Part shown: positions 21,207 to 56,068 of the stretch, one piece after another
How the letters are laid out: every line of letters begins with the position of its first letter
Numbering within the stretch: position 1 is the stretch's first letter
Source: Vitreoscilla massiliensis
GTDB lineage: Bacteria > Pseudomonadota > Gammaproteobacteria > Burkholderiales > Neisseriaceae
DNA length: 64,000 bases
Reading direction: 5' to 3'
Assembly: GCF_001457815.1 (NCBI RefSeq)
Contig: NZ_LN898221.1
Span: 778,033 to 842,032 of the forward strand
Translations under genes and position numbers: made by a program
The notes under the pieces: model-generated
What the model was told of the DNA's origin: nothing
Databases searched by the model: none
The model's input: the letters and a program-made list of their open reading frames with translations, nothing else

Positions 21207-23666
21207 ATGACAAAAAGAAAAAATAATTTACGCGCCCAAGATCCGTTTCTTGCGCGTGAACAAGAAAAATACAGCGATCCACTCCCCAGTCGTGAGTGGG
21301 TGATTGAATTATTAGAGAAAAAAGGCGTGCCGGTGAGCACGGAAGAATTGGCCACGGTGTTGTCAATTCGTGAAGATGAGATGGAATTTTTTCGCCGTCG
21401 CTTGGGTGCGATGGTCAGAGATGGTCAGGTTCACATCAACCGCCGTGGTTTGGTGTGTGTGGCGGAGAAGCTGGCTTTGGTCAAATGCCGCATTGAAGCG
21501 CACAGCGATGGCTTTGGTTTTGCAGTGCCGGTAGAAAAAAAAGAAGGCGATACCGATTTGGTATTGTATGAACGCCAAATGCGCGGCCTGATGCATGGCG
21601 ATGTGGTGACGGTGCGGCCTGTAGGCGTGGACAGACGCGGTCGCCGTGAGGGGCAAGTGCTGGACATCATCGAACGAGCCAATACCTCGGTGGTGGCGCG
21701 TTTGGCCAAAGAAGGCGACATCGCCGTGGCCATACCGGAAGACAAACGCATCTCGCAAAGCATCGTCTTGGATGCCAAAAGCATTGGGGATGCCAAAGAT
21801 GGTCAAGTCATCAATGTGGCATTAACGCGCTATCCTGAAAAAAATCTGCCTGCCACTGGTAAAGTGATCGAAGTCTTGGGCGACTATGCCTACAGCGGCA
21901 TGGAAATCGAGATTGCGGTGCGCAAACACCATTTGCCGCACAAATTCTCACCTGCTTGTTTGAAAGCAGCCGGTAAAATCCCGGATAAGGTCAAACCTGC
22001 TGAGCGCAAAGGCCGCGTTGATTTGCGCGACTTGCCTTTGGTCACCATAGACGGCGAAACCGCGCGCGACTTTGACGATGCGGTATATGCCGAGAAAATC
22101 GGTCGCAATTACCGTTTGGTGGTGGCGATTGCTGACGTTAGCCACTATGTCAAAGATGGCGATGGCATCGACATCGATGCACGCGAACGCGGCACCAGCG
22201 TGTATTTCCCGCGCCGTGTCATTCCGATGTTGCCAGAAAACCTGTCCAATGGCATTTGTTCGCTTAATCCGGATGTGGAGCGTTTGTGCATGGTGTGTGA
22301 CATGGTCATCACCAATATGGGCAATGTGAAATCGTATGAGTTTTACCCTGCGGTAATGCGTTCGCATGCGCGCTTGACCTACACCCAAGTGTGGCAATGG
22401 ATAGAATCAGGTGAGCAACACGATTTGAAACCGCAAATCGACACCTTGTACCAGTTGTACCAAAAGCTGTTTAAAAAACGCCAACAACGCGGCGCGATGG
22501 AATTCGATACCGTCGAAACGCAAATGGTGTTCAACGACAATGGCAAAATCGACCGCATCGTCCCTGTGGTACGCAATGAAGCCCACCGCTTGATTGAGGA
22601 ATGCATGCTGGCGGCCAACGTGTGTGCGGCGGAATTCTTGCTCAAGAGCAAACACCCATCGCTGTACCGCAATCACAAAGGCCCAACGCCTGAGAAATTG
22701 GAAACCTTGCGCACGCAACTGGCCTTGTTTGGTTTGGTATTGGGCGGTGGTGACAACCCCACTCCGAAAGACTATGCCACGCTGGCCGAACAGTTTACAG
22801 GCCGCCCTGACAAGGAATTGTTGCAAGTGATGTTGCTGCGCTCGATGCAGCAAGCGATGTACGAAGCGAAGAACGATGGTCACTTTGGCTTGGCCTACCA
22901 AGCCTATACCCATTTCACTTCGCCAATACGCCGGTATCCCGACTTAACCGTACACCGCGCCATCAAAGCGGTGCTGTTGGGTGAAAAATACCAAGTCGAT
23001 TCATGGCCGGGCTTGGGCACGCACACTTCTTACACCGAACGCCGTGCCGACGAGGCCAGCAAAGGGGTGGAAAATTGGCTCAAGACGTATTACATGCAAG
23101 ACAAAGTTGGCGAAGTGTACGAAGGCCGCATTTCTGGCCTCACCAATTTTGGTTTGTTCGTGACCTTAAACGATTTGTACATCGACGGTTTGGTGCACAT
23201 CAGTGATTTGGGCGAAGACTATTTCAACTACCGCCCTGAAATCATGGCCATAGAAGGCGAACGCAGCGGCGTGGTCTTCAAAATGGGCGATGCGGTGGTG
23301 GTGAAAGTGGCCAGCGCCAATTTAGATACTGGCAAGATAGACTTAAGCTTGGTGTCTGGCGGTGGCAAATCGGCCAAAGGCGAACGCAAAACCCGCAGCG
23401 ACAACCGCAGCAAGAACAACAAAACCAGCGCCACGGATGAATCCAGCGCCAGCAGCAAGCGCCGCAAAACCAGTCGTGCGGCCGCGAACCAAGTAGCGCA
23501 ATCGCGCCCACCCAAATCGCGCAAAGCCCGCCGCAGCGCCCAAGGGGTCAGCGCCAGCAGCAACAGCGCCAGTGGTGCGGAGAAAACCACCACCAGCAAA
23601 GCAGCCAAGCGCAACAGCCGCAAAAAGCCCAGCAAACCCAATCGCAATGGCGGCAAAAAAAGCTGA
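21207..23666 (+). CDS. rnr: Ribonuclease R with Lys/Ser-rich C-terminal tail
   Basis: RNB catalytic domain and S1 domain motifs. About 820 aa. Confidence 0.9.
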   Translation: MTKRKNNLRAQDPFLAREQEKYSDPLPSREWVIELLEKKGVPVSTEELATVLSIREDEMEFFRRRLGAMVRDGQVHINRRGLVCVAEKLALVKCRIEAHSDGFGFAVPVEKKEGDTDLVLYERQMRGLMHGDVVTVRPVGVDRRGRREGQVLDIIERANTSVVARLAKEGDIAVAIPEDKRISQSIVLDAKSIGDAKDGQVINVALTRYPEKNLPATGKVIEVLGDYAYSGMEIEIAVRKHHLPHKFSPACLKAAGKIPDKVKPAERKGRVDLRDLPLVTIDGETARDFDDAVYAEKIGRNYRLVVAIADVSHYVKDGDGIDIDARERGTSVYFPRRVIPMLPENLSNGICSLNPDVERLCMVCDMVITNMGNVKSYEFYPAVMRSHARLTYTQVWQWIESGEQHDLKPQIDTLYQLYQKLFKKRQQRGAMEFDTVETQMVFNDNGKIDRIVPVVRNEAHRLIEECMLAANVCAAEFLLKSKHPSLYRNHKGPTPEKLETLRTQLALFGLVLGGGDNPTPKDYATLAEQFTGRPDKELLQVMLLRSMQQAMYEAKNDGHFGLAYQAYTHFTSPIRRYPDLTVHRAIKAVLLGEKYQVDSWPGLGTHTSYTERRADEASKGVENWLKTYYMQDKVGEVYEGRISGLTNFGLFVTLNDLYIDGLVHISDLGEDYFNYRPEIMAIEGERSGVVFKMGDAVVVKVASANLDTGKIDLSLVSGGGKSAKGERKTRSDNRSKNNKTSATDESSASSKRRKTSRAAANQVAQSRPPKSRKARRSAQGVSASSNSASGAEKTTTSKAAKRNSRKKPSKPNRNGGKKS

Positions 23667-23705: not shown

Positions 23706-23748
23706 CAAGCGGCCTGTAAAAGTTTACAGGCCGCTTTTTTATGGCTTT
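23706..23748. terminator. Inverted uptake-motif pair plus T-run (CAAGCGGCCTGTAAAAGTTTACAGGCCGCTTTTTT)
   Basis: Immediately after the rnr stop. Confidence 0.7.
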
Positions 23749-23942
23749 TACAGCAGCAAGCATTAAATAACCAATGGCAATAATATCAAATTAGAATAAA
23801 ACTTGAGATTATATCCATTGTAAAGTACAATGCCTAAAGTTGAATTTCGATAGGAAATTCAAGTGATTAATAGTGATTATTTTTAAATGTTTTTTTAATG
23901 TAGGTACAAAGCATTTAAAAATGGTCGATTGCTTGGTAGGTA

Positions 23943-24326
23943 ATGACGAGAGTAATGGATAAGACCACTATCAGGGTTTCGTTTCTCAGCTTAACGCTGC
24001 CAAACGAAGCCTTGCTCAAAGACAAAATCACTGCGGTAAGCCAATCCATGTCTGTGGATGTGCGTTTCAGCCGTGGCCTTGCTGCTGATTTGTTGTTTCT
24101 GCCAGTTTCCTCCCCTTTTGCGCATGTCTTGCTGCAACAGCCCAAAGATGCCAACACGCCCATGCTGTTTTTCATCAGCGATGAGCAGCAAGGCGGTCAT
24201 ATGGGGCATCCTTGCATCAGTTCCTTGCATCAGTTTGGACATCAGCACCGACAATATGCAGCAATTGTTATCCAGCTATTTGAAGCTAGAACAAGCGCCG
24301 CAAAGCAAACCAGTGACAGCAAGTGA
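23943..24326 (+). CDS. Hypothetical protein. N-terminal part of a probably frameshifted gene that continues in the +1 frame as 24058..24960
   Basis: Protein-like ORF that overlaps the next ORF in a different frame. An AT-rich promoter region lies upstream. Confidence 0.35.
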   Translation: MTRVMDKTTIRVSFLSLTLPNEALLKDKITAVSQSMSVDVRFSRGLAADLLFLPVSSPFAHVLLQQPKDANTPMLFFISDEQQGGHMGHPCISSLHQFGHQHRQYAAIVIQLFEARTSAAKQTSDSK

Positions 24327-24960
24327 AATACCGTTCGCCAATCTGACTGAGCTGGCGCAATTGCTGTTGCAACCGGTATTGAAAGACGGCTTGTTTGCGC
24401 TGAAAACGCCATTACAAAATCTGATTTTGAATTTCCCTGCCGATTTGTTTCATGTCTCTGCTGCCGATAAAAGCCAGTATAACGACAGCAACAAAACGCT
24501 GTTGTCCTTAATCGACAAACTCAAATTGGGCGGCACGGTGTTGGCCATCAAAACCGATGCCAGCAAACAATTGGAACGCAGTTTTACCCCACATTTTTTG
24601 GACAGATTGTTGTGGCTGATAGGCCAGCAACTTCGCCATCAATTATTGGTACCTGTGGCCGACAACAGCCAATTTTTCATCACCCATTATCCCGACTTTG
24701 GTCAGCTGAAAACCGATCATATCTACCTGCGTTTGTGCACCTTAATGGCACAACAAGCCATCAGCATTCAAGAAATGAAAAAGAAATTTCATTTGTCGCA
24801 TGAGCAATGCATGGGGTTTTTGAACAGCTGCTTGCTCAATGATTGCTTGGTGCACACCGGTTTGGACAGTGACCTTAAGCCGCCTCCAACCACGCAGATT
24901 ACCTCCACATTAAGCTTATCTGAAATACAAGGATGTCGCATAGACTTGGGCATCAAGTAA
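24058..24960 (+). CDS. Hypothetical protein. The first roughly 60 codons look non-coding, and the plausible body starts near 24250. First gene of the GTPase/Roadblock module
   Basis: Lower GC than its neighbours. 23 bp gap to the GTPase gene. Confidence 0.45.
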   Translation: MCVSAVALLLICCFCQFPPLLRMSCCNSPKMPTRPCCFSSAMSSKAVIWGILASVPCISLDISTDNMQQLLSSYLKLEQAPQSKPVTASEIPFANLTELAQLLLQPVLKDGLFALKTPLQNLILNFPADLFHVSAADKSQYNDSNKTLLSLIDKLKLGGTVLAIKTDASKQLERSFTPHFLDRLLWLIGQQLRHQLLVPVADNSQFFITHYPDFGQLKTDHIYLRLCTLMAQQAISIQEMKKKFHLSHEQCMGFLNSCLLNDCLVHTGLDSDLKPPPTTQITSTLSLSEIQGCRIDLGIK

Positions 24961-24982
24961 ACACACACTGAAAGTATGAGGC

Positions 24983-25561
24983 ATGTTAAAGAAATTCAAA
25001 GTGCTTTTTGCAGGTGATGTGGGTACGGGCAAGACCACCGCCATCAATAGCATCAGCGATATTCCTACGGTGTATACCGATGTGAGGGCTTCCGACATAG
25101 AAGACATAGGCAAGACCCATACCACCGTGGCGTTTGATTATGGGGAAATCCATTTGGCTTATCTGAACAACCGCTTGCGTTTGTATGGTTTGCCTGGGCA
25201 AGTGAGGTTTTCCTTTATTTGGGACATGTTGTCCGATGGCGTCATCGGCATCGTGTTATTGGCCAACAACCACCGTGACAATGCTTTGCATGAAACCGAA
25301 CAGTTTTTGCAAGCGTTCTTGCCCATATTACAAAAAGAACAGGTGGCGATGGTATTGGGCCTGACCCACGGAGACGTCAGTGCCCATTACAAGTCCAAAG
25401 ATTATTGGAAAATCTTACAAAAATTTCACATCAACGCGCCTATTTTGAGCATAGATGCGCGTGAAAAAAACGATGTATTGCTTTTACTGGAGGCCTTATT
25501 CAGCCAAATCGAAGCAACACACCGTCAAACCTTGCATGAATCAAAGCATTCATGCACTTAA
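24983..25561 (+). CDS. Ras-superfamily small GTPase (MglA-like)
   Basis: 192 aa. G1 P-loop GDVGTGKTT, switch-I threonine, G3-like LPGQ. Size and layout of prokaryotic Ras-like GTPases. Confidence 0.75.
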   Translation: MLKKFKVLFAGDVGTGKTTAINSISDIPTVYTDVRASDIEDIGKTHTTVAFDYGEIHLAYLNNRLRLYGLPGQVRFSFIWDMLSDGVIGIVLLANNHRDNALHETEQFLQAFLPILQKEQVAMVLGLTHGDVSAHYKSKDYWKILQKFHINAPILSIDAREKNDVLLLLEALFSQIEATHRQTLHESKHSCT

Positions 25562-25581
25562 CCCTCCTTAAGGAAACAATT

Positions 25582-25941
25582 ATGGCAAACGCTAAAGAGA
25601 TATTAAACGACATCATGACTTTGGACGGCGCACTGTGTTGCAGCATCGTCGACAGCAAAAGCGGCATGATGTTGGAATCAGCAGGCACAGGTTTGAATTT
25701 GGAAATGGCTTCAGCCGGCAACACCGAAGTGGTGCGTTCTAAATTGAAAACCATGGAAATTTTGGGTTTGGACGATTACATCACCGATATTTTGATTACC
25801 TTGGGCAAGCAATACCACATCATTTACCTGATTCCTGCGGTCAAAGGGGCATTTGTGTACGCGGTATTGGACATCAACAAGGCCAACTTGGCGATGGCAC
25901 GTCGTAAAATCCAAGATGTGGGTGCTACCTTAAAAATCTAA
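25582..25941 (+). CDS. Roadblock/LC7-domain protein (MglB-like)
   Basis: 119 aa with a Roadblock-like profile (LDGALCCSIVDSKSGMMLES...YHIIYLIPAVKGAFVYAVLD). Overlaps the GTPase gene's stop. Confidence 0.7.
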   Translation: MANAKEILNDIMTLDGALCCSIVDSKSGMMLESAGTGLNLEMASAGNTEVVRSKLKTMEILGLDDYITDILITLGKQYHIIYLIPAVKGAFVYAVLDINKANLAMARRKIQDVGATLKI

Positions 25942-26198
25942 CACCAATCAGACAGGGATTACTAACATCATCCCCTTAATGGAAGAGGATTACGTTAACA
26001 ATTCTAAACTTGGGTCGTGAAAACCATTCATGGCCACGAAATCCATTCCCAGCCAGCTGTACCGATTACCCCTCATCTTATCGGTGCCGCTGGCTTTTTC
26101 TGCTTGCCCATCTGCCGTCCTTACCCTGATTCATCCACCCTCTTCCTGCCTGAGCAACTGGACAAAAGCCGCGCCAGCCCCTACACTGCCACCTGTCG

Positions 26199-28210
<2,012 letters not shown>

Positions 28211-52842: not shown

Positions 52843-53976
52843 ATGAAGTATTCCACTTTCAGCAAGACCCCCAATAACCAATTATTGGAACCGATGTTTT
52901 TCGGTCAATCGGTGAACATTGCCCGTTACGACCAGCAAAAATACGAAATTTTTGAAAAACTGATAGAAAAACAACTGTCGTTTTTCTGGCGCCCAGAAGA
53001 AGTCGACGTGTCACAAGACCGTTTGGACTACAGCAATTTGCCCGAGCATGAAAAACACATTTTCATCAGCAATTTGAAATACCAAACCTTATTGGATTCG
53101 ATTCAAGGCCGCAGCCCTAACGTGGCTTTGTTGCCCATCGTGTCGATACCCGAATTGGAAACGTGGATCGAAACGTGGTCGTTCTCCGAAACCATACACT
53201 CGCGCTCGTATACCCACATCATCCGTAATATTGTGCACGAACCGTCTACCGTGTTTGACGACATCGTGACCAACGAATACATCATTCGCCGCGCCGAAGA
53301 AATCGCCCAATACTACGATGATTTGATTCAAGCCACGCAACACTACCATTTGTTTGGCGAAGGCACGCACCAAGTCGCTGGCGAAACCATCACCGTGTCG
53401 CTGCGCGAACTCAAACGCAAATTGTACCGTTGCATGATGTGCGTCAACGCCTTGGAAGCCATCCGTTTTTATGTGTCGTTCGCCTGCTCGTTTGCCTTTG
53501 CCGAACGCGAATTGATGGAAGGCAATGCCAAAATCATCAAATTGATTGCCCGCGATGAAGCCTTACATCTCACTGGCACGCAACACATTTTGAACCTGTT
53601 GCGCTCAGGCCAAGACGATCCTGAAATGGCCGAAGTGGCTGCTGAATGTGAACAAGACTGTTACGACTTGTTCAAACGCGCCGCCATGCAAGAAAAAGAA
53701 TGGGCCGAATACCTGTTCAAAGACGGTTCTATGATCGGCCTGAATAAAGACATTTTGGGGCAATACATCGAGTACATCACCAATTTGCGCATGATTGCCG
53801 TTGGCTTACAGCCCGCATTTGAAGGCGCCAACCAAAATCCGATTCCGTGGATTAACGCGTGGCTCTCCAGCGACAATGTGCAAGTGGCACCGCAAGAAGT
53901 GGAATTAAGCTCTTACCTCATCGGTCAGATTGATTCTGAATTGTCGGCCGACGACTTAGGCGATTTCGAGCTGTAA
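52843..53976 (+). CDS. nrdB: Ribonucleotide reductase class Ia beta subunit
   Basis: 377 aa. Di-iron ligands and the tyrosyl-radical region. Its stop overlaps the yfaE start (TAATG). Confidence 0.95.
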
Positions 53977-54316: not shown

Positions 54317-54973
54317 TTGACGTTTTTTAAATTTAGCAATAAAATTCATCCATCTCTAGCAGCTTTTGGTATTCAATTTATGTACTCTGTAAACAAATTA
54401 CTAAATATAGATGAATCAATATCTAAAAATTTATGCTCGCTGGTCGAAGCTAGATTGAATGAGTTTGAAAATGTTTACATATCAATGAAACATCTCTGTT
54501 CAACTGAGCAAACTAGAGGTACAGCTCGAGTAGATGTTTTAAATCGTGCAATATCAGACTACGCTGACTCAAATGATTTAGTTCAAATTATCGACCCAAC
54601 TAGCAATTTCATATTTAGAATTAATGGCCACGAGTTTAGGACATTAGTCCATTCACTCCATGCAAATCCTCAAACCAAATTAAGCAAAGTAGCAAAATAT
54701 AATAAAAATGAACTCTTACCTTTTGTTGAATTTGAAAATTCAGTTGAAATTATCACTTGGCTTATAGAAGTTGATGATATTTATTTTGAAGATACTGTTA
54801 ATTTCTCCATCTTTATACGTGGATACAATTTAGAAACTCAAGCAATTGTAGCTGAATATAAATATGTACGAGATGAAATGATTTCTACCCCTGAAATTAC
54901 CACCCCATACTCGCCTTCTCAGCCAGTAGTTGAAATTGATAATCCTATTATCTCGTTAAAAAATAGTAATTAA
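54317..54973 (+). CDS. Hypothetical protein (about 200 aa). Very AT-rich. Start may be TTG at 54317 or ATG at 54380
   Basis: Protein-like, no transmembrane helices. Separated from the next gene by 3 bp. Confidence 0.5.
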   Translation: MTFFKFSNKIHPSLAAFGIQFMYSVNKLLNIDESISKNLCSLVEARLNEFENVYISMKHLCSTEQTRGTARVDVLNRAISDYADSNDLVQIIDPTSNFIFRINGHEFRTLVHSLHANPQTKLSKVAKYNKNELLPFVEFENSVEIITWLIEVDDIYFEDTVNFSIFIRGYNLETQAIVAEYKYVRDEMISTPEITTPYSPSQPVVEIDNPIISLKNSN

Positions 54974-54976
54974 ACC

Positions 54977-56068
54977 ATGTCCATACGCATTCACAATGAG
55001 TTTGATAGCTTTATTCCAAATCGTTTGAGCACTTTAAGGCATGCAAACAAACTTTCACTTGATGAAATTGCTTTGAAATTAGAAATTTCAAAGCAATCCA
55101 TTCATCTTTTTGAAACAGGTCAACGCGAGCCAAGTAAATCACATATTGAACAGTTATCCATTTTATTTGGAGTTAAAACTGATTTTTTTTATAAAACAAA
55201 ACAGTTAAGTGATATTCCATTAGAAAAAGTACATTTTAGAAAATTAAAAAGTACTCCTATTTCTTTAAAAAAAACCACTGTTTCTAAATTAGAGCTAATT
55301 AATTTTATAATTGAGAATTTAGAGAATTATTTAAATCTTCCTAAAATAAATATTCCCTATATTGTAAATGAGCATATTGAAAATATTGCATTACAAGCTC
55401 GTGAGCATTGGAAATTAGGACTAGGCCCTATTTCTAATGTCACTCTACTTGCTGAAAGCAATGGCGCATTTGTATTAGAAATGACAGATATCGATACAAA
55501 AGTTGATGCTCTATCTGTATTTAAAGATAACCAACGCCCATTGATATTAAGAAATACTTCTAAAGAATCTCCTTGCCGAAATAGATTCGATATTGTTCAT
55601 GAGATTGGGCATTTGATTATGCATCGATTTATTGAAACTGGAGACAACCTGACAGAAAGCGAAGCAAATTCGTTTAGTGCGGCATTTCTATTGCCAAAAG
55701 AGATTATGCTTACTGATTTCAGTAGGTATATTTTTAGGCGCAGTCAAATCAATTGGGAGTTTCTTTCAGAATTCAAATTAGAATGGAAAGTCAGTAAAGC
55801 TGCCATTTTATACCGAGCGCACAAATTGAATATTATAAGCGATGCACAGTACAAAAGCGCAGTCATCTCATTAAAACGAAAAGGTGAAGCCATTACAGAA
55901 AAAGAAGATTACTTAATCCAACAAGAAAAACCTATGTTAATCTCACAGTGTATTGATTTATTAACCCCCGACTTACTAAACCAGCTCCTGAATGATATTT
56001 CCATGAATAAATCAGCTTTTTATGAATTAATAAACAAAGATTATAATCATGTAATTCAATTCAAATAA
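54977..56068 (+). CDS. Fusion of an N-terminal HTH-XRE DNA-binding domain and an ImmA/IrrE-type (COG2856, HExxH) zinc metallopeptidase domain
   Basis: LSLDEIALKLEISKQSIHLFETGQREPS is an XRE helix-turn-helix. HEIGHLIMH with a downstream E...F block is the ImmA/IrrE family signature. Confidence 0.8.
   Translation: MSIRIHNEFDSFIPNRLSTLRHANKLSLDEIALKLEISKQSIHLFETGQREPSKSHIEQLSILFGVKTDFFYKTKQLSDIPLEKVHFRKLKSTPISLKKTTVSKLELINFIIENLENYLNLPKINIPYIVNEHIENIALQAREHWKLGLGPISNVTLLAESNGAFVLEMTDIDTKVDALSVFKDNQRPLILRNTSKESPCRNRFDIVHEIGHLIMHRFIETGDNLTESEANSFSAAFLLPKEIMLTDFSRYIFRRSQINWEFLSEFKLEWKVSKAAILYRAHKLNIISDAQYKSAVISLKRKGEAITEKEDYLIQQEKPMLISQCIDLLTPDLLNQLLNDISMNKSAFYELINKDYNHVIQFK

Follow-up and report, generated by a model that had tools for sequence, protein, structure and literature searches.

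The 64-kb stretch of Vitreoscilla massiliensis DNA analysed here, to which we refer as the window, carries three genes on the same strand between the terminator of rnr (23707-23736) and the thiamine pyrophosphate (TPP) riboswitch of thiC (26195-26303). They are an upstream partner gene, hereafter X (23943..24960, + strand), a gene for a 192-aa small GTPase (24983..25561, + strand) and a gene for a 119-aa protein of the Roadblock/LC7 fold (25582..25941, + strand), a homologue of MglB whose clade we name Robl119. The locus is very probably a three-gene operon that encodes a GTPase system of the MglA family, Group 3. This is a known kind of system, catalogued computationally in 2015; the architecture seen here is a variant of it, and its first gene is broken in the strain. 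The original prediction had proposed a GTPase/Roadblock pair of the MglA/MglB and CvnD/CvnB type with a third partner gene, and the motifs, the fold and the presence of gene X agree with that proposal.

The GTPase and its group

The 192-aa protein is 100% identical to a Vitreoscilla massiliensis entry at NCBI that bears the name 'ATP/GTP-binding protein'. It matches the Pfam family PF03029 at 1.2e-10, above the gathering score, and shows weak matches to Arf, Ras and RsgA. When searched alone against solved structures, it finds the MglA proteins of Thermus and Myxococcus as its best matches (E 0.015-0.03), and a profile made from 36 sequences of the GTPase family reaches Rab/Sec4 at 1e-11 and MglA at 8e-8 in the PDB. 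The PF03029 match and the profile matches to the Ras superfamily and MglA confirm that the protein is a Ras-like small GTPase, as had been proposed.

The motifs of the GTPase are readily recognized: the P-loop FAGDVGTGKTTAI (GDVGTGKTT), HTTV (within KTHTTVAFDYG), YGLPGQ, LGLTHGD (with THGD at G4) and IDAREK. The P-loop GKTT, the TT pair of switch I, YGxPGQ and a D-x-R near the C-terminus are invariant in the alignment of 36 GTPases, in which T47, T48, G69, G72 and Q73, and likewise D158 and R160, do not vary. The G4 position is degenerate across the family alignment and reads THGD here, compared to TKxD in the nearest relatives. Judging by the alignment, the missing NKxD thus reflects the replacement of Lys by His in a family where G4 appears to have been relaxed already.

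Group 3 of MglA was defined by a Thr that replaces the arginine finger of Group 1, a GTPGQ-like (GxPGQ) G3, a G4 deviating from [NT]KxD, frequently with no Lys, and an unusual DAR at G5 (PMC4316618). The V. massiliensis protein has a Ras-superfamily G domain with a P-loop, TT in place of the arginine finger at G2, GLPGQ at G3, a deviating LTHGD at G4 and DAR at G5. X lies upstream and the Roadblock gene downstream of the GTPase gene, and the host, a member of the Neisseriaceae, belongs to the beta/gammaproteobacteria, as do the relatives listed. The original prediction had taken the G4 without an obvious NKxD as the sign of a divergent member. The divergence of G4 is real, but it is a hallmark of Group 3 and not an unusual departure.

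Gene X and its frameshift

The region of gene X holds two open reading frames (ORFs) that overlap out of frame, one of 127 aa (23943-24326) and one of 300 aa (24058-24960), while the database gene call covers only the 234-aa C-terminal part, from ATG 24256. The two frames are parts of one 334-aa reading frame, which is broken by a +13 frameshift: a perfect tandem duplication of 13 bp, TCCTTGCATCAGT, lies at 24209..24234 on the + strand (copies 24209-24221 and 24222-24234) and shifts the frame. Removal of one copy fuses both frames into a 334-aa X, which aligns end to end and with 81% identity to the intact 336-aa X protein (P0241) of a related metagenomic contig, L003, where the gene order is X, GTPase, Roadblock, thiC. 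Of the upstream ORF of about 300 aa in the original prediction, the start of the ORF set at 23943 and the role as a third partner gene stand; the frameshift had gone unnoticed, and the picture of an intact ORF gives way to a 334-aa gene split into two frames by the duplication at 24209-24234.

Both V. massiliensis assemblies (CP091511.1 and the Logan contig of run SRR20281129) carry the duplication, which L003 lacks. Programmed frameshifting in X was considered too, and is ruled out by the absence of the duplication in the orthologue. The ratio of nonsynonymous to synonymous substitution rates (dN/dS) relative to L003 is 0.17 for gene X, 0.045 for the GTPase and 0.009 for Robl119. Since all three genes are under purifying selection compared to L003, the lesion is recent. 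It falls after the receiver-like domain of X, and the system is probably impaired in the strain. At best, the strain would make a truncated 234-aa X from the internal ATG 24256, which is not preceded by a convincing Shine-Dalgarno sequence.

The Logan contig is base-for-base the same as the 64-kb window. The only two differences between the window and CP091511.1 are single-base homopolymer deletions in the latter: A8 is shortened to A7 in rnr (window position 21535) and T4 to T3 in gene X (window position 24111). The window version is credible at both homopolymers, because rnr is intact there and the second site agrees with the orthologous protein. The deletion at the first site disrupts rnr, which is left without a gene call in CP091511.1, and the second deletion together with the 13-bp duplication gives gene X a false 338-aa ORF in that assembly.

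Pfam and NCBIfam gave no match for either fragment of X. A word-indexed homologue search with the repaired X returned two proteins only, and an exhaustive HMMER search with P0241 returned 46 representatives, which are related mainly over residues 205-320. The AlphaFold model of P0241, made on an alignment of 41 sequences, has a mean predicted local distance difference test (pLDDT) score of 86.5 and is composed of four parts: an alpha/beta domain (10-109), a second alpha/beta domain (128-212), a helical part (218-304) and a terminal helix (323-332). The model agrees with the Phyre2 prediction of 2015, in which the unknown protein of Group 3 systems is receiver-like at the N-terminus and winged-helix-like at the C-terminus (PMC4316618). 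The modeled N-terminal domain has a CheY-like fold. In an alignment of 84 X sequences the Asp at the end of strand 3 is found in 70-71 members and the Lys/Pro after strand 5 in 71 of 80. In the Vitreoscilla lineage both the phospho-acceptor Asp and the Lys(-Pro) are missing, with P54/S56 and M94-D95 or L94-D95 at the aligned positions of P0241 and the repaired X. W223, a W-P motif and R330 of the terminal helix are invariant or nearly so in 41 X sequences, and members of the X family show weak Pfam matches to winged-helix families. From these data X is predicted to consist of a receiver-like domain, an alpha/beta domain, a winged helix and a C-terminal helix with the conserved Arg.

The Roadblock protein

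The ATG at 25582 is preceded by AAGGA 7 nt upstream, no ribosome-binding site is found at ATG 25552, and the homologues of the protein are all 118-120 aa long and begin with MAN. Therefore, the start is placed at 25582, 20 nt past the stop of the GTPase gene. The four-codon overlap of the two genes in the original prediction is replaced by this spacer; an overlap, of 10 nt, exists only if translation starts at 25552, in an unlikely 129-aa ORF.

The AlphaFold (AF2) model of Robl119, made on an alignment of 49 sequences, has a pLDDT of 94.5 and the topology alpha-beta-beta-alpha-beta-beta-beta-alpha. Its top Foldseek matches are MglB of Thermus and Myxococcus (1j3w, 6hjm, 3t12, 6h5b), MglC, Asgard Roadblock proteins and LAMTOR2, with E of about 5e-7 and template modelling (TM) scores of 0.74-0.81, and all 50 listed matches have the Roadblock fold (MglB, MglC, Roadblock, LAMTOR/Ragulator and dynein LC7). 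A profile of 49 Robl119 sequences searched against the sequences of the PDB gave chance-level matches only. The assignment to Roadblock/LC7 in the original prediction thus holds for the predicted fold but finds no match to the PF03259 profile; as far as the model goes, the Roadblock fold stands although the absence of such a match had been named beforehand as grounds for giving it up.

The Robl119 family is large and strongly conserved. At E <= 1e-3 it comprises 4386 clusters of homologues, and the best 120 of these are about 60-72% identical to the query, the named ones being mostly from Burkholderiales. Robl119 sequences of Neisseriaceae and Burkholderiales share about 60-70% identity, the GTPases about 40-45% and the X proteins about 20%. 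The neighboring Roadblock proteins of 134 aa and 120 aa found in other sub-types of the system do match PF03259.

Distribution and sub-types

In a collection with one genome per species, a scan found at least 594 relatives, confirmed among 600 listed stretches. The loci kept include those of Neisseria mucosa, N. sicca, N. subflava, N. oralis, N. wadsworthii, Kingella denitrificans and K. oralis, together with loci from Chromobacteriaceae, Methylococcaceae, Thiotrichales, Xanthomonadales and Burkholderiales. MglA Group 3 occurs almost only in beta- and gammaproteobacteria, Neisseria among them (PMC4316618). In the light of this and of the relatives found, GTPase/Roadblock pairs are not uncommon in betaproteobacteria, contrary to what had been supposed, and the module is a lineage-specific reduced form of a widespread family and no rarity. 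In N. gonorrhoeae the match to the GTPase homologue is made up of two joined pieces at a place where no feature is annotated, in two chromosome-sized records (about 2.17 Mb) of a plasmid collection, and the homologue may be a pseudogene there.

X lies directly upstream of the GTPase gene in nearly all of the 80-odd surveyed loci, and three arrangements of the remaining genes can be distinguished. In arrangement A the GTPase is accompanied by a protein of about 213 aa and a 120-aa Roadblock protein matching PF03259 (Neisseria, Kingella, Chromobacteriaceae, methanotrophs and Thiotrichales). Arrangement B has a 134-aa PF03259 Roadblock protein followed by Robl119 (Xanthomonadales/Nevskiales, Burkholderiales and Zoogloeaceae). 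Arrangement C has Robl119 only, and is found in V. massiliensis, in L003 and in two tandem modules of Neisseria sp. Ec49-e6-T10. A rough neighbor-joining tree of the GTPases, drawn without support values, places Vitreoscilla and Ec49 with arrangement B, apart from the classical Neisseria/Kingella clade. The V. massiliensis copy is a reduced form of the two-Roadblock sub-type, from which the canonical 134-aa Robl_LC7 gene was lost and in which the atypical, highly conserved 119-aa paralogue was kept. At no other surveyed locus was rnr or thiC found near the module.

Several loci depart from these arrangements in detail. In a metagenomic relative (L090, 2405-4428) a gene for a 118-aa Roadblock protein lies upstream of X and not downstream of the GTPase. 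A Ramlibacter-like locus of the Burkholderiales (L005, 6170-7360) has a 133-aa Roadblock gene and two consecutive genes for 119-aa proteins, followed by a GAF-domain gene. The Neisseria sp. Ec49-e6-T10 record (CP152375.1; L004, 6977-11333) holds two complete X-GTPase-Robl119 modules in tandem, and the same 3.2-Mb contig, of a genome with about 37% GC, has one more GTPase paralogue (P0010) and one more 119-aa protein, making three of each. Such a local multiplication of the system is unusual.

Base composition

The module has a GC content of 45.7%, compared to a mean of 50.3% (standard deviation 3.6) for the 64-kb window, which places it in the 8th percentile of 2-kb windows; within the module GC ranges over 45-50%, against 52.6-53.2% in rnr and thiC. 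The lower GC noted in the original prediction is thus confirmed, but it is only mild. In six other genomes of low or medium GC (L003, L004, L034, L056, L090 and L091) the GC content of the homologous modules is likewise 1-5 points lower than that of their flanks, which is not the case in high-GC hosts. Because of these six genomes, the shift towards AT is to be seen as intrinsic to the genes, and low GC as a sign of recent transfer is ruled out. Of the accessory islet that had been suggested, the position between rnr and thiC and the single-Roadblock architecture are indeed lineage-specific, whereas the low GC is general to such modules and does not mark a recent transfer.

Elsewhere in the window, an islet of 28-35% GC against about 50% lies at 54317-56068 (+ strand), just downstream of the gene for the small subunit of ribonucleotide reductase (52843-53976). 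It encodes a 218-aa protein that matches nothing in Pfam and a 363-aa protein with HTH_3 and Peptidase_M78 domains (ImmA/IrrE-like), and looks far more like a horizontally acquired insert than the GTPase module does.

Boundaries and control elements

The upstream boundary of the unit is the intrinsic terminator of rnr (23707..23736, + strand), a 13-bp stem with 100% complementary arms followed by a T-run. It is formed by an inverted pair of the DNA uptake sequence of the species: the 12-mer AAGCGGCCTGTA occurs 69 times in the window with at most 1 mismatch, compared to 0.27 expected occurrences. The uptake sequence dialect of V. massiliensis SN6 has been given as AGCGGCCTGTAA (bioRxiv 10.1101/2025.10.24.684340), and AAGCGGCCTGTA is this previously published dialect. 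Copies of it frequently stand in inverted pairs that form terminators, as at 23707-23736; a further copy lies at 26319-26330.

The unit had been described as starting right after the rnr terminator. The terminator is there, but the start lies about 200 nt beyond it, behind a promoter-like site TTGAGA-17-TACAAT (23803..23831, + strand) upstream of gene X, which is a consensus match only, at 10 of 12 positions. This promoter-like block is almost unchanged in L003 despite a synonymous divergence of 0.4-0.7 in the coding regions. Just 3' of the -10-like hexamer, a perfect 9-bp inverted repeat, TTGAATTTC-N5-GAAATTCAA (23840..23862, no strand assigned), has the same arms in L003 and a different spacer, and is a candidate operator. 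A second inverted repeat, ATTTTTAAATG...CATTTAAAAAT, lies in the leader of gene X at 23879-23922. Both inverted repeats are contained in a stretch of about 110 nt, with its L003 counterpart at 324-411, over which V. massiliensis and L003 are nearly identical, and judging from this sequence they may be regulatory sites. The regions upstream of the Neisseria sp. Ec49 modules are too AT-rich for a comparison that would reveal a shared operator.

On the downstream side, the TPP riboswitch (RF00059, 26195-26303, + strand) scores 80.5 bits and precedes thiC. The start of thiC is likelier ATG 26408 than GTG 26291 of the longest ORF, because the ORF from GTG 26291 overlaps the riboswitch.

Proposed mechanism and alternative explanations

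We propose that the 192-aa GTPase acts as a nucleotide switch of the Ras superfamily that does without the intrinsic arginine finger of Myxococcus and Thermus MglA. Robl119, most likely as a dimer, would bind the switch regions and serve as the GTPase-activating partner. MglB acts as a GTPase-activating protein (GAP) (PMC4316618), and co-crystal entries of MglB are among the Foldseek matches of Robl119. In mycobacteria MfpD is the GAP and MfpC the guanine nucleotide exchange factor (GEF) of the GTPase MfpB; the same GTPase/GAP logic probably applies here, and by this analogy with MfpD Robl119 would have GAP activity on the adjacent GTPase. X would be the coupled input/output component, similar to a response regulator, and most likely a DNA-binding output whose activity is set by the nucleotide state of the GTPase. 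Alternatively, X could be an exchange factor, like MfpC, or a co-GAP that acts via its conserved arginine. What the analysis demonstrates is the gene structure, the motifs, the folds, the family membership, the distribution, the frameshift and the purifying selection; we infer the GAP activity, the DNA binding, the direction of regulation and the biological output.

One can go further and suppose that Robl119 is a distinct and unusually conserved Roadblock subfamily, invisible to Pfam, which alone serves the GTPase in the reduced lineage, that the Arg of X provides in trans the arginine finger missing from Groups 2-5, and that X is both co-GAP and winged-helix output. This is a long shot. If true, the module would be a transcription factor gated by a G protein, a signaling logic so far undemonstrated in bacteria.

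Several points weigh against the proposed switch. The frameshift means that the operon may be idle in the strain. Neither the 119-aa nor the 129-aa form of the Roadblock protein matches Pfam (PF03259 included) or NCBIfam at E <= 1. The receiver-like domain appears degenerate in the lineage, and since the Asp and Lys-Pro positions are lost there, an input by phosphorylation is unlikely. The winged helix is suggested by the secondary structure of the model and by the weak Pfam matches. The literature searched yielded no biochemical or genetic data on this sub-type and no biochemical study of Group 3; the sole Group 3 phenotypes found in it concern the colony edges and gut colonisation of Snodgrassella (PMC11112851).

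Other explanations have to be weighed on the same evidence. It is possible, with somewhat less than an even chance, that in this strain the module is a non-functional, decaying remnant whose GTPase and Roadblock genes are heading for loss, which would be compatible with the Group 3 assignment. The 13-bp duplication in two assemblies, the change of the G4 Lys to His (THGD compared to TKxD in the closest relatives) and the lack of a convincing Shine-Dalgarno sequence before ATG 24256 all point in this direction. However, purifying selection on all three genes relative to L003 is strong, neither the GTPase ORF nor the Roadblock ORF is disrupted or has lost any of the residues that are invariant in its family, and a tandem repeat of two copies can revert. 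That the module is a horizontally acquired islet serving defence or a mobile element is, on the other hand, highly improbable. PADLOC finds nothing past a trivial P-loop match, which disposes of a defence system, and no integrase, transposase or tRNA was seen near the module. The sole flanking direct repeat (15 nt, 23722-23736 and 26316-26330), which might be taken for an insertion scar, is the uptake sequence of the species with its 69 copies in the window. The plasmid matches, which could suggest a mobile module, are chromids, mislabelled chromosomes and Streptomyces conservons. Set against this, the GC somewhat under that of the flanks, the rnr-thiC position seen in the Vitreoscilla lineage only and a sub-type that differs from the classical Neisseria/Kingella one would fit an islet, but the homologous modules in the six other low- or mid-GC genomes are similarly AT-shifted.

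It is rather doubtful that the module works like a conservon (Cvn/Mfp), with X as an exchange factor in the role of MfpC/CvnC or as a sensor, the Roadblock protein as the GAP and the GTPase itself as the output on an unlinked target. One would argue for it that the TT at G2 and the GxPGQ at G3 are common to Groups 2-5 and the DAR at G5 to Groups 2 and 3 (PMC4316618), that CvnD-type proteins match PF03029 as well, that GAP and GEF are the functions of MfpD and MfpC, and that the GTPase was proposed as the conservon output by Wuichet and Søgaard-Andersen (PMC4316618). However, the module neither contains nor adjoins a histidine-kinase gene, and none of 37 X-family proteins matches DUF742 or HATPase at E <= 0.1, so that no relative of DUF742 (CvnC/MfpC) was detected at the C-terminus of X; X, with three domains, also has a different architecture. 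A switch of cell polarity or type IV pili like Myxococcus MglA/MglB, where the GTP-bound GTPase at one pole activates pili or gliding and the Roadblock GAP excludes it from the other, is unlikely, although pilus or polarity control had been put forward in the original prediction. A role of this kind would draw indirectly, by analogy, on the study of a different sub-type in Snodgrassella, where a point mutation in an orphan mglB of Group 3 altered the colony-edge morphology on soft agar and host colonisation, and transposon sequencing (Tn-seq) marked the mglB genes as beneficial (PMC11112851); a preprint also describes gliding motility in free-living Vitreoscilla. But the mutated gene lies outside the Snodgrassella operon, and the V. 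massiliensis GTPase lacks the hallmarks of Group 1 (an Arg by the G2 Thr, TVPGQ and a canonical NKxD). Its constant partner is the receiver/winged-helix-like X and no polarity factor, and the gene tables read, which are no systematic survey of neighbors, show no adjoining pilus genes except a FimW_N-domain gene about 3 kb downstream in Methylomarinum.

Significance and comparison with known systems

Group 3 MglA systems span hundreds of species of beta- and gammaproteobacteria, including Neisseria, Kingella, Xanthomonadales and methanotrophs, and the locus contributes little that is new in kind. Its minimal form, with three genes and a single, highly conserved Roadblock protein, would be the simplest to reconstitute. 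It also tells us that the receiver domain of X can lose its phospho-acceptor positions while the C-terminal region is kept, which argues for a core coupling that links the GTPase to the C-terminal part of X. Finally, the 13-bp duplication is a natural knock-out of X, which automated annotation had recorded as a 234-aa hypothetical protein.

The V. massiliensis module shares a Ras-superfamily GTPase with the MglA-MglB systems of Myxococcus xanthus and Thermus thermophilus (Group 1), and its Roadblock fold is similar to MglB chains with TM scores of 0.74-0.80. Unlike Group 1 MglA, its GTPase has no arginine finger by the G2 Thr, TT and GLPGQ standing in place of the finger and of TVPGQ, and has a non-canonical G4. 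The partner proteins differ as well. With the actinobacterial conservons and Mfp (MglA Group 2) it has in common a PF03029-type GTPase devoid of an intrinsic arginine finger and a Roadblock protein. In contrast to them, it has neither a histidine-kinase-like CvnA nor a DUF742 protein (CvnC/MfpC), and the X-type protein is the constant partner instead.

Closer to home, the classical Neisseria and Kingella systems combine the GTPase with the protein of about 213 aa and the 120-aa Robl_LC7 protein, and their GTPases fall in a different clade from that of V. massiliensis. The Group 3 mgl operon of Snodgrassella (PMC11112851) belongs to the same MglA group and the same bacterial family, Neisseriaceae, but by the description of that paper it has two coupled mglB genes and an orphan mglB, the latter being the mutated gene. 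Compared to Group 3 systems in general, V. massiliensis has one Roadblock gene, of the clade that normally comes second in two-Roadblock systems, its receiver-like domain is devoid of the conserved Asp and Lys-Pro, and its first gene is frameshifted. In all other respects compared here it follows the systems catalogued in 2015 (PMC4316618): the gene order is X-type protein, MglA homologue and MglB homologue(s), the GTPase has TT at G2, GxPGQ at G3, a Lys-less G4 and DAR at G5, and the host lies within their range, which includes the Neisseriaceae.

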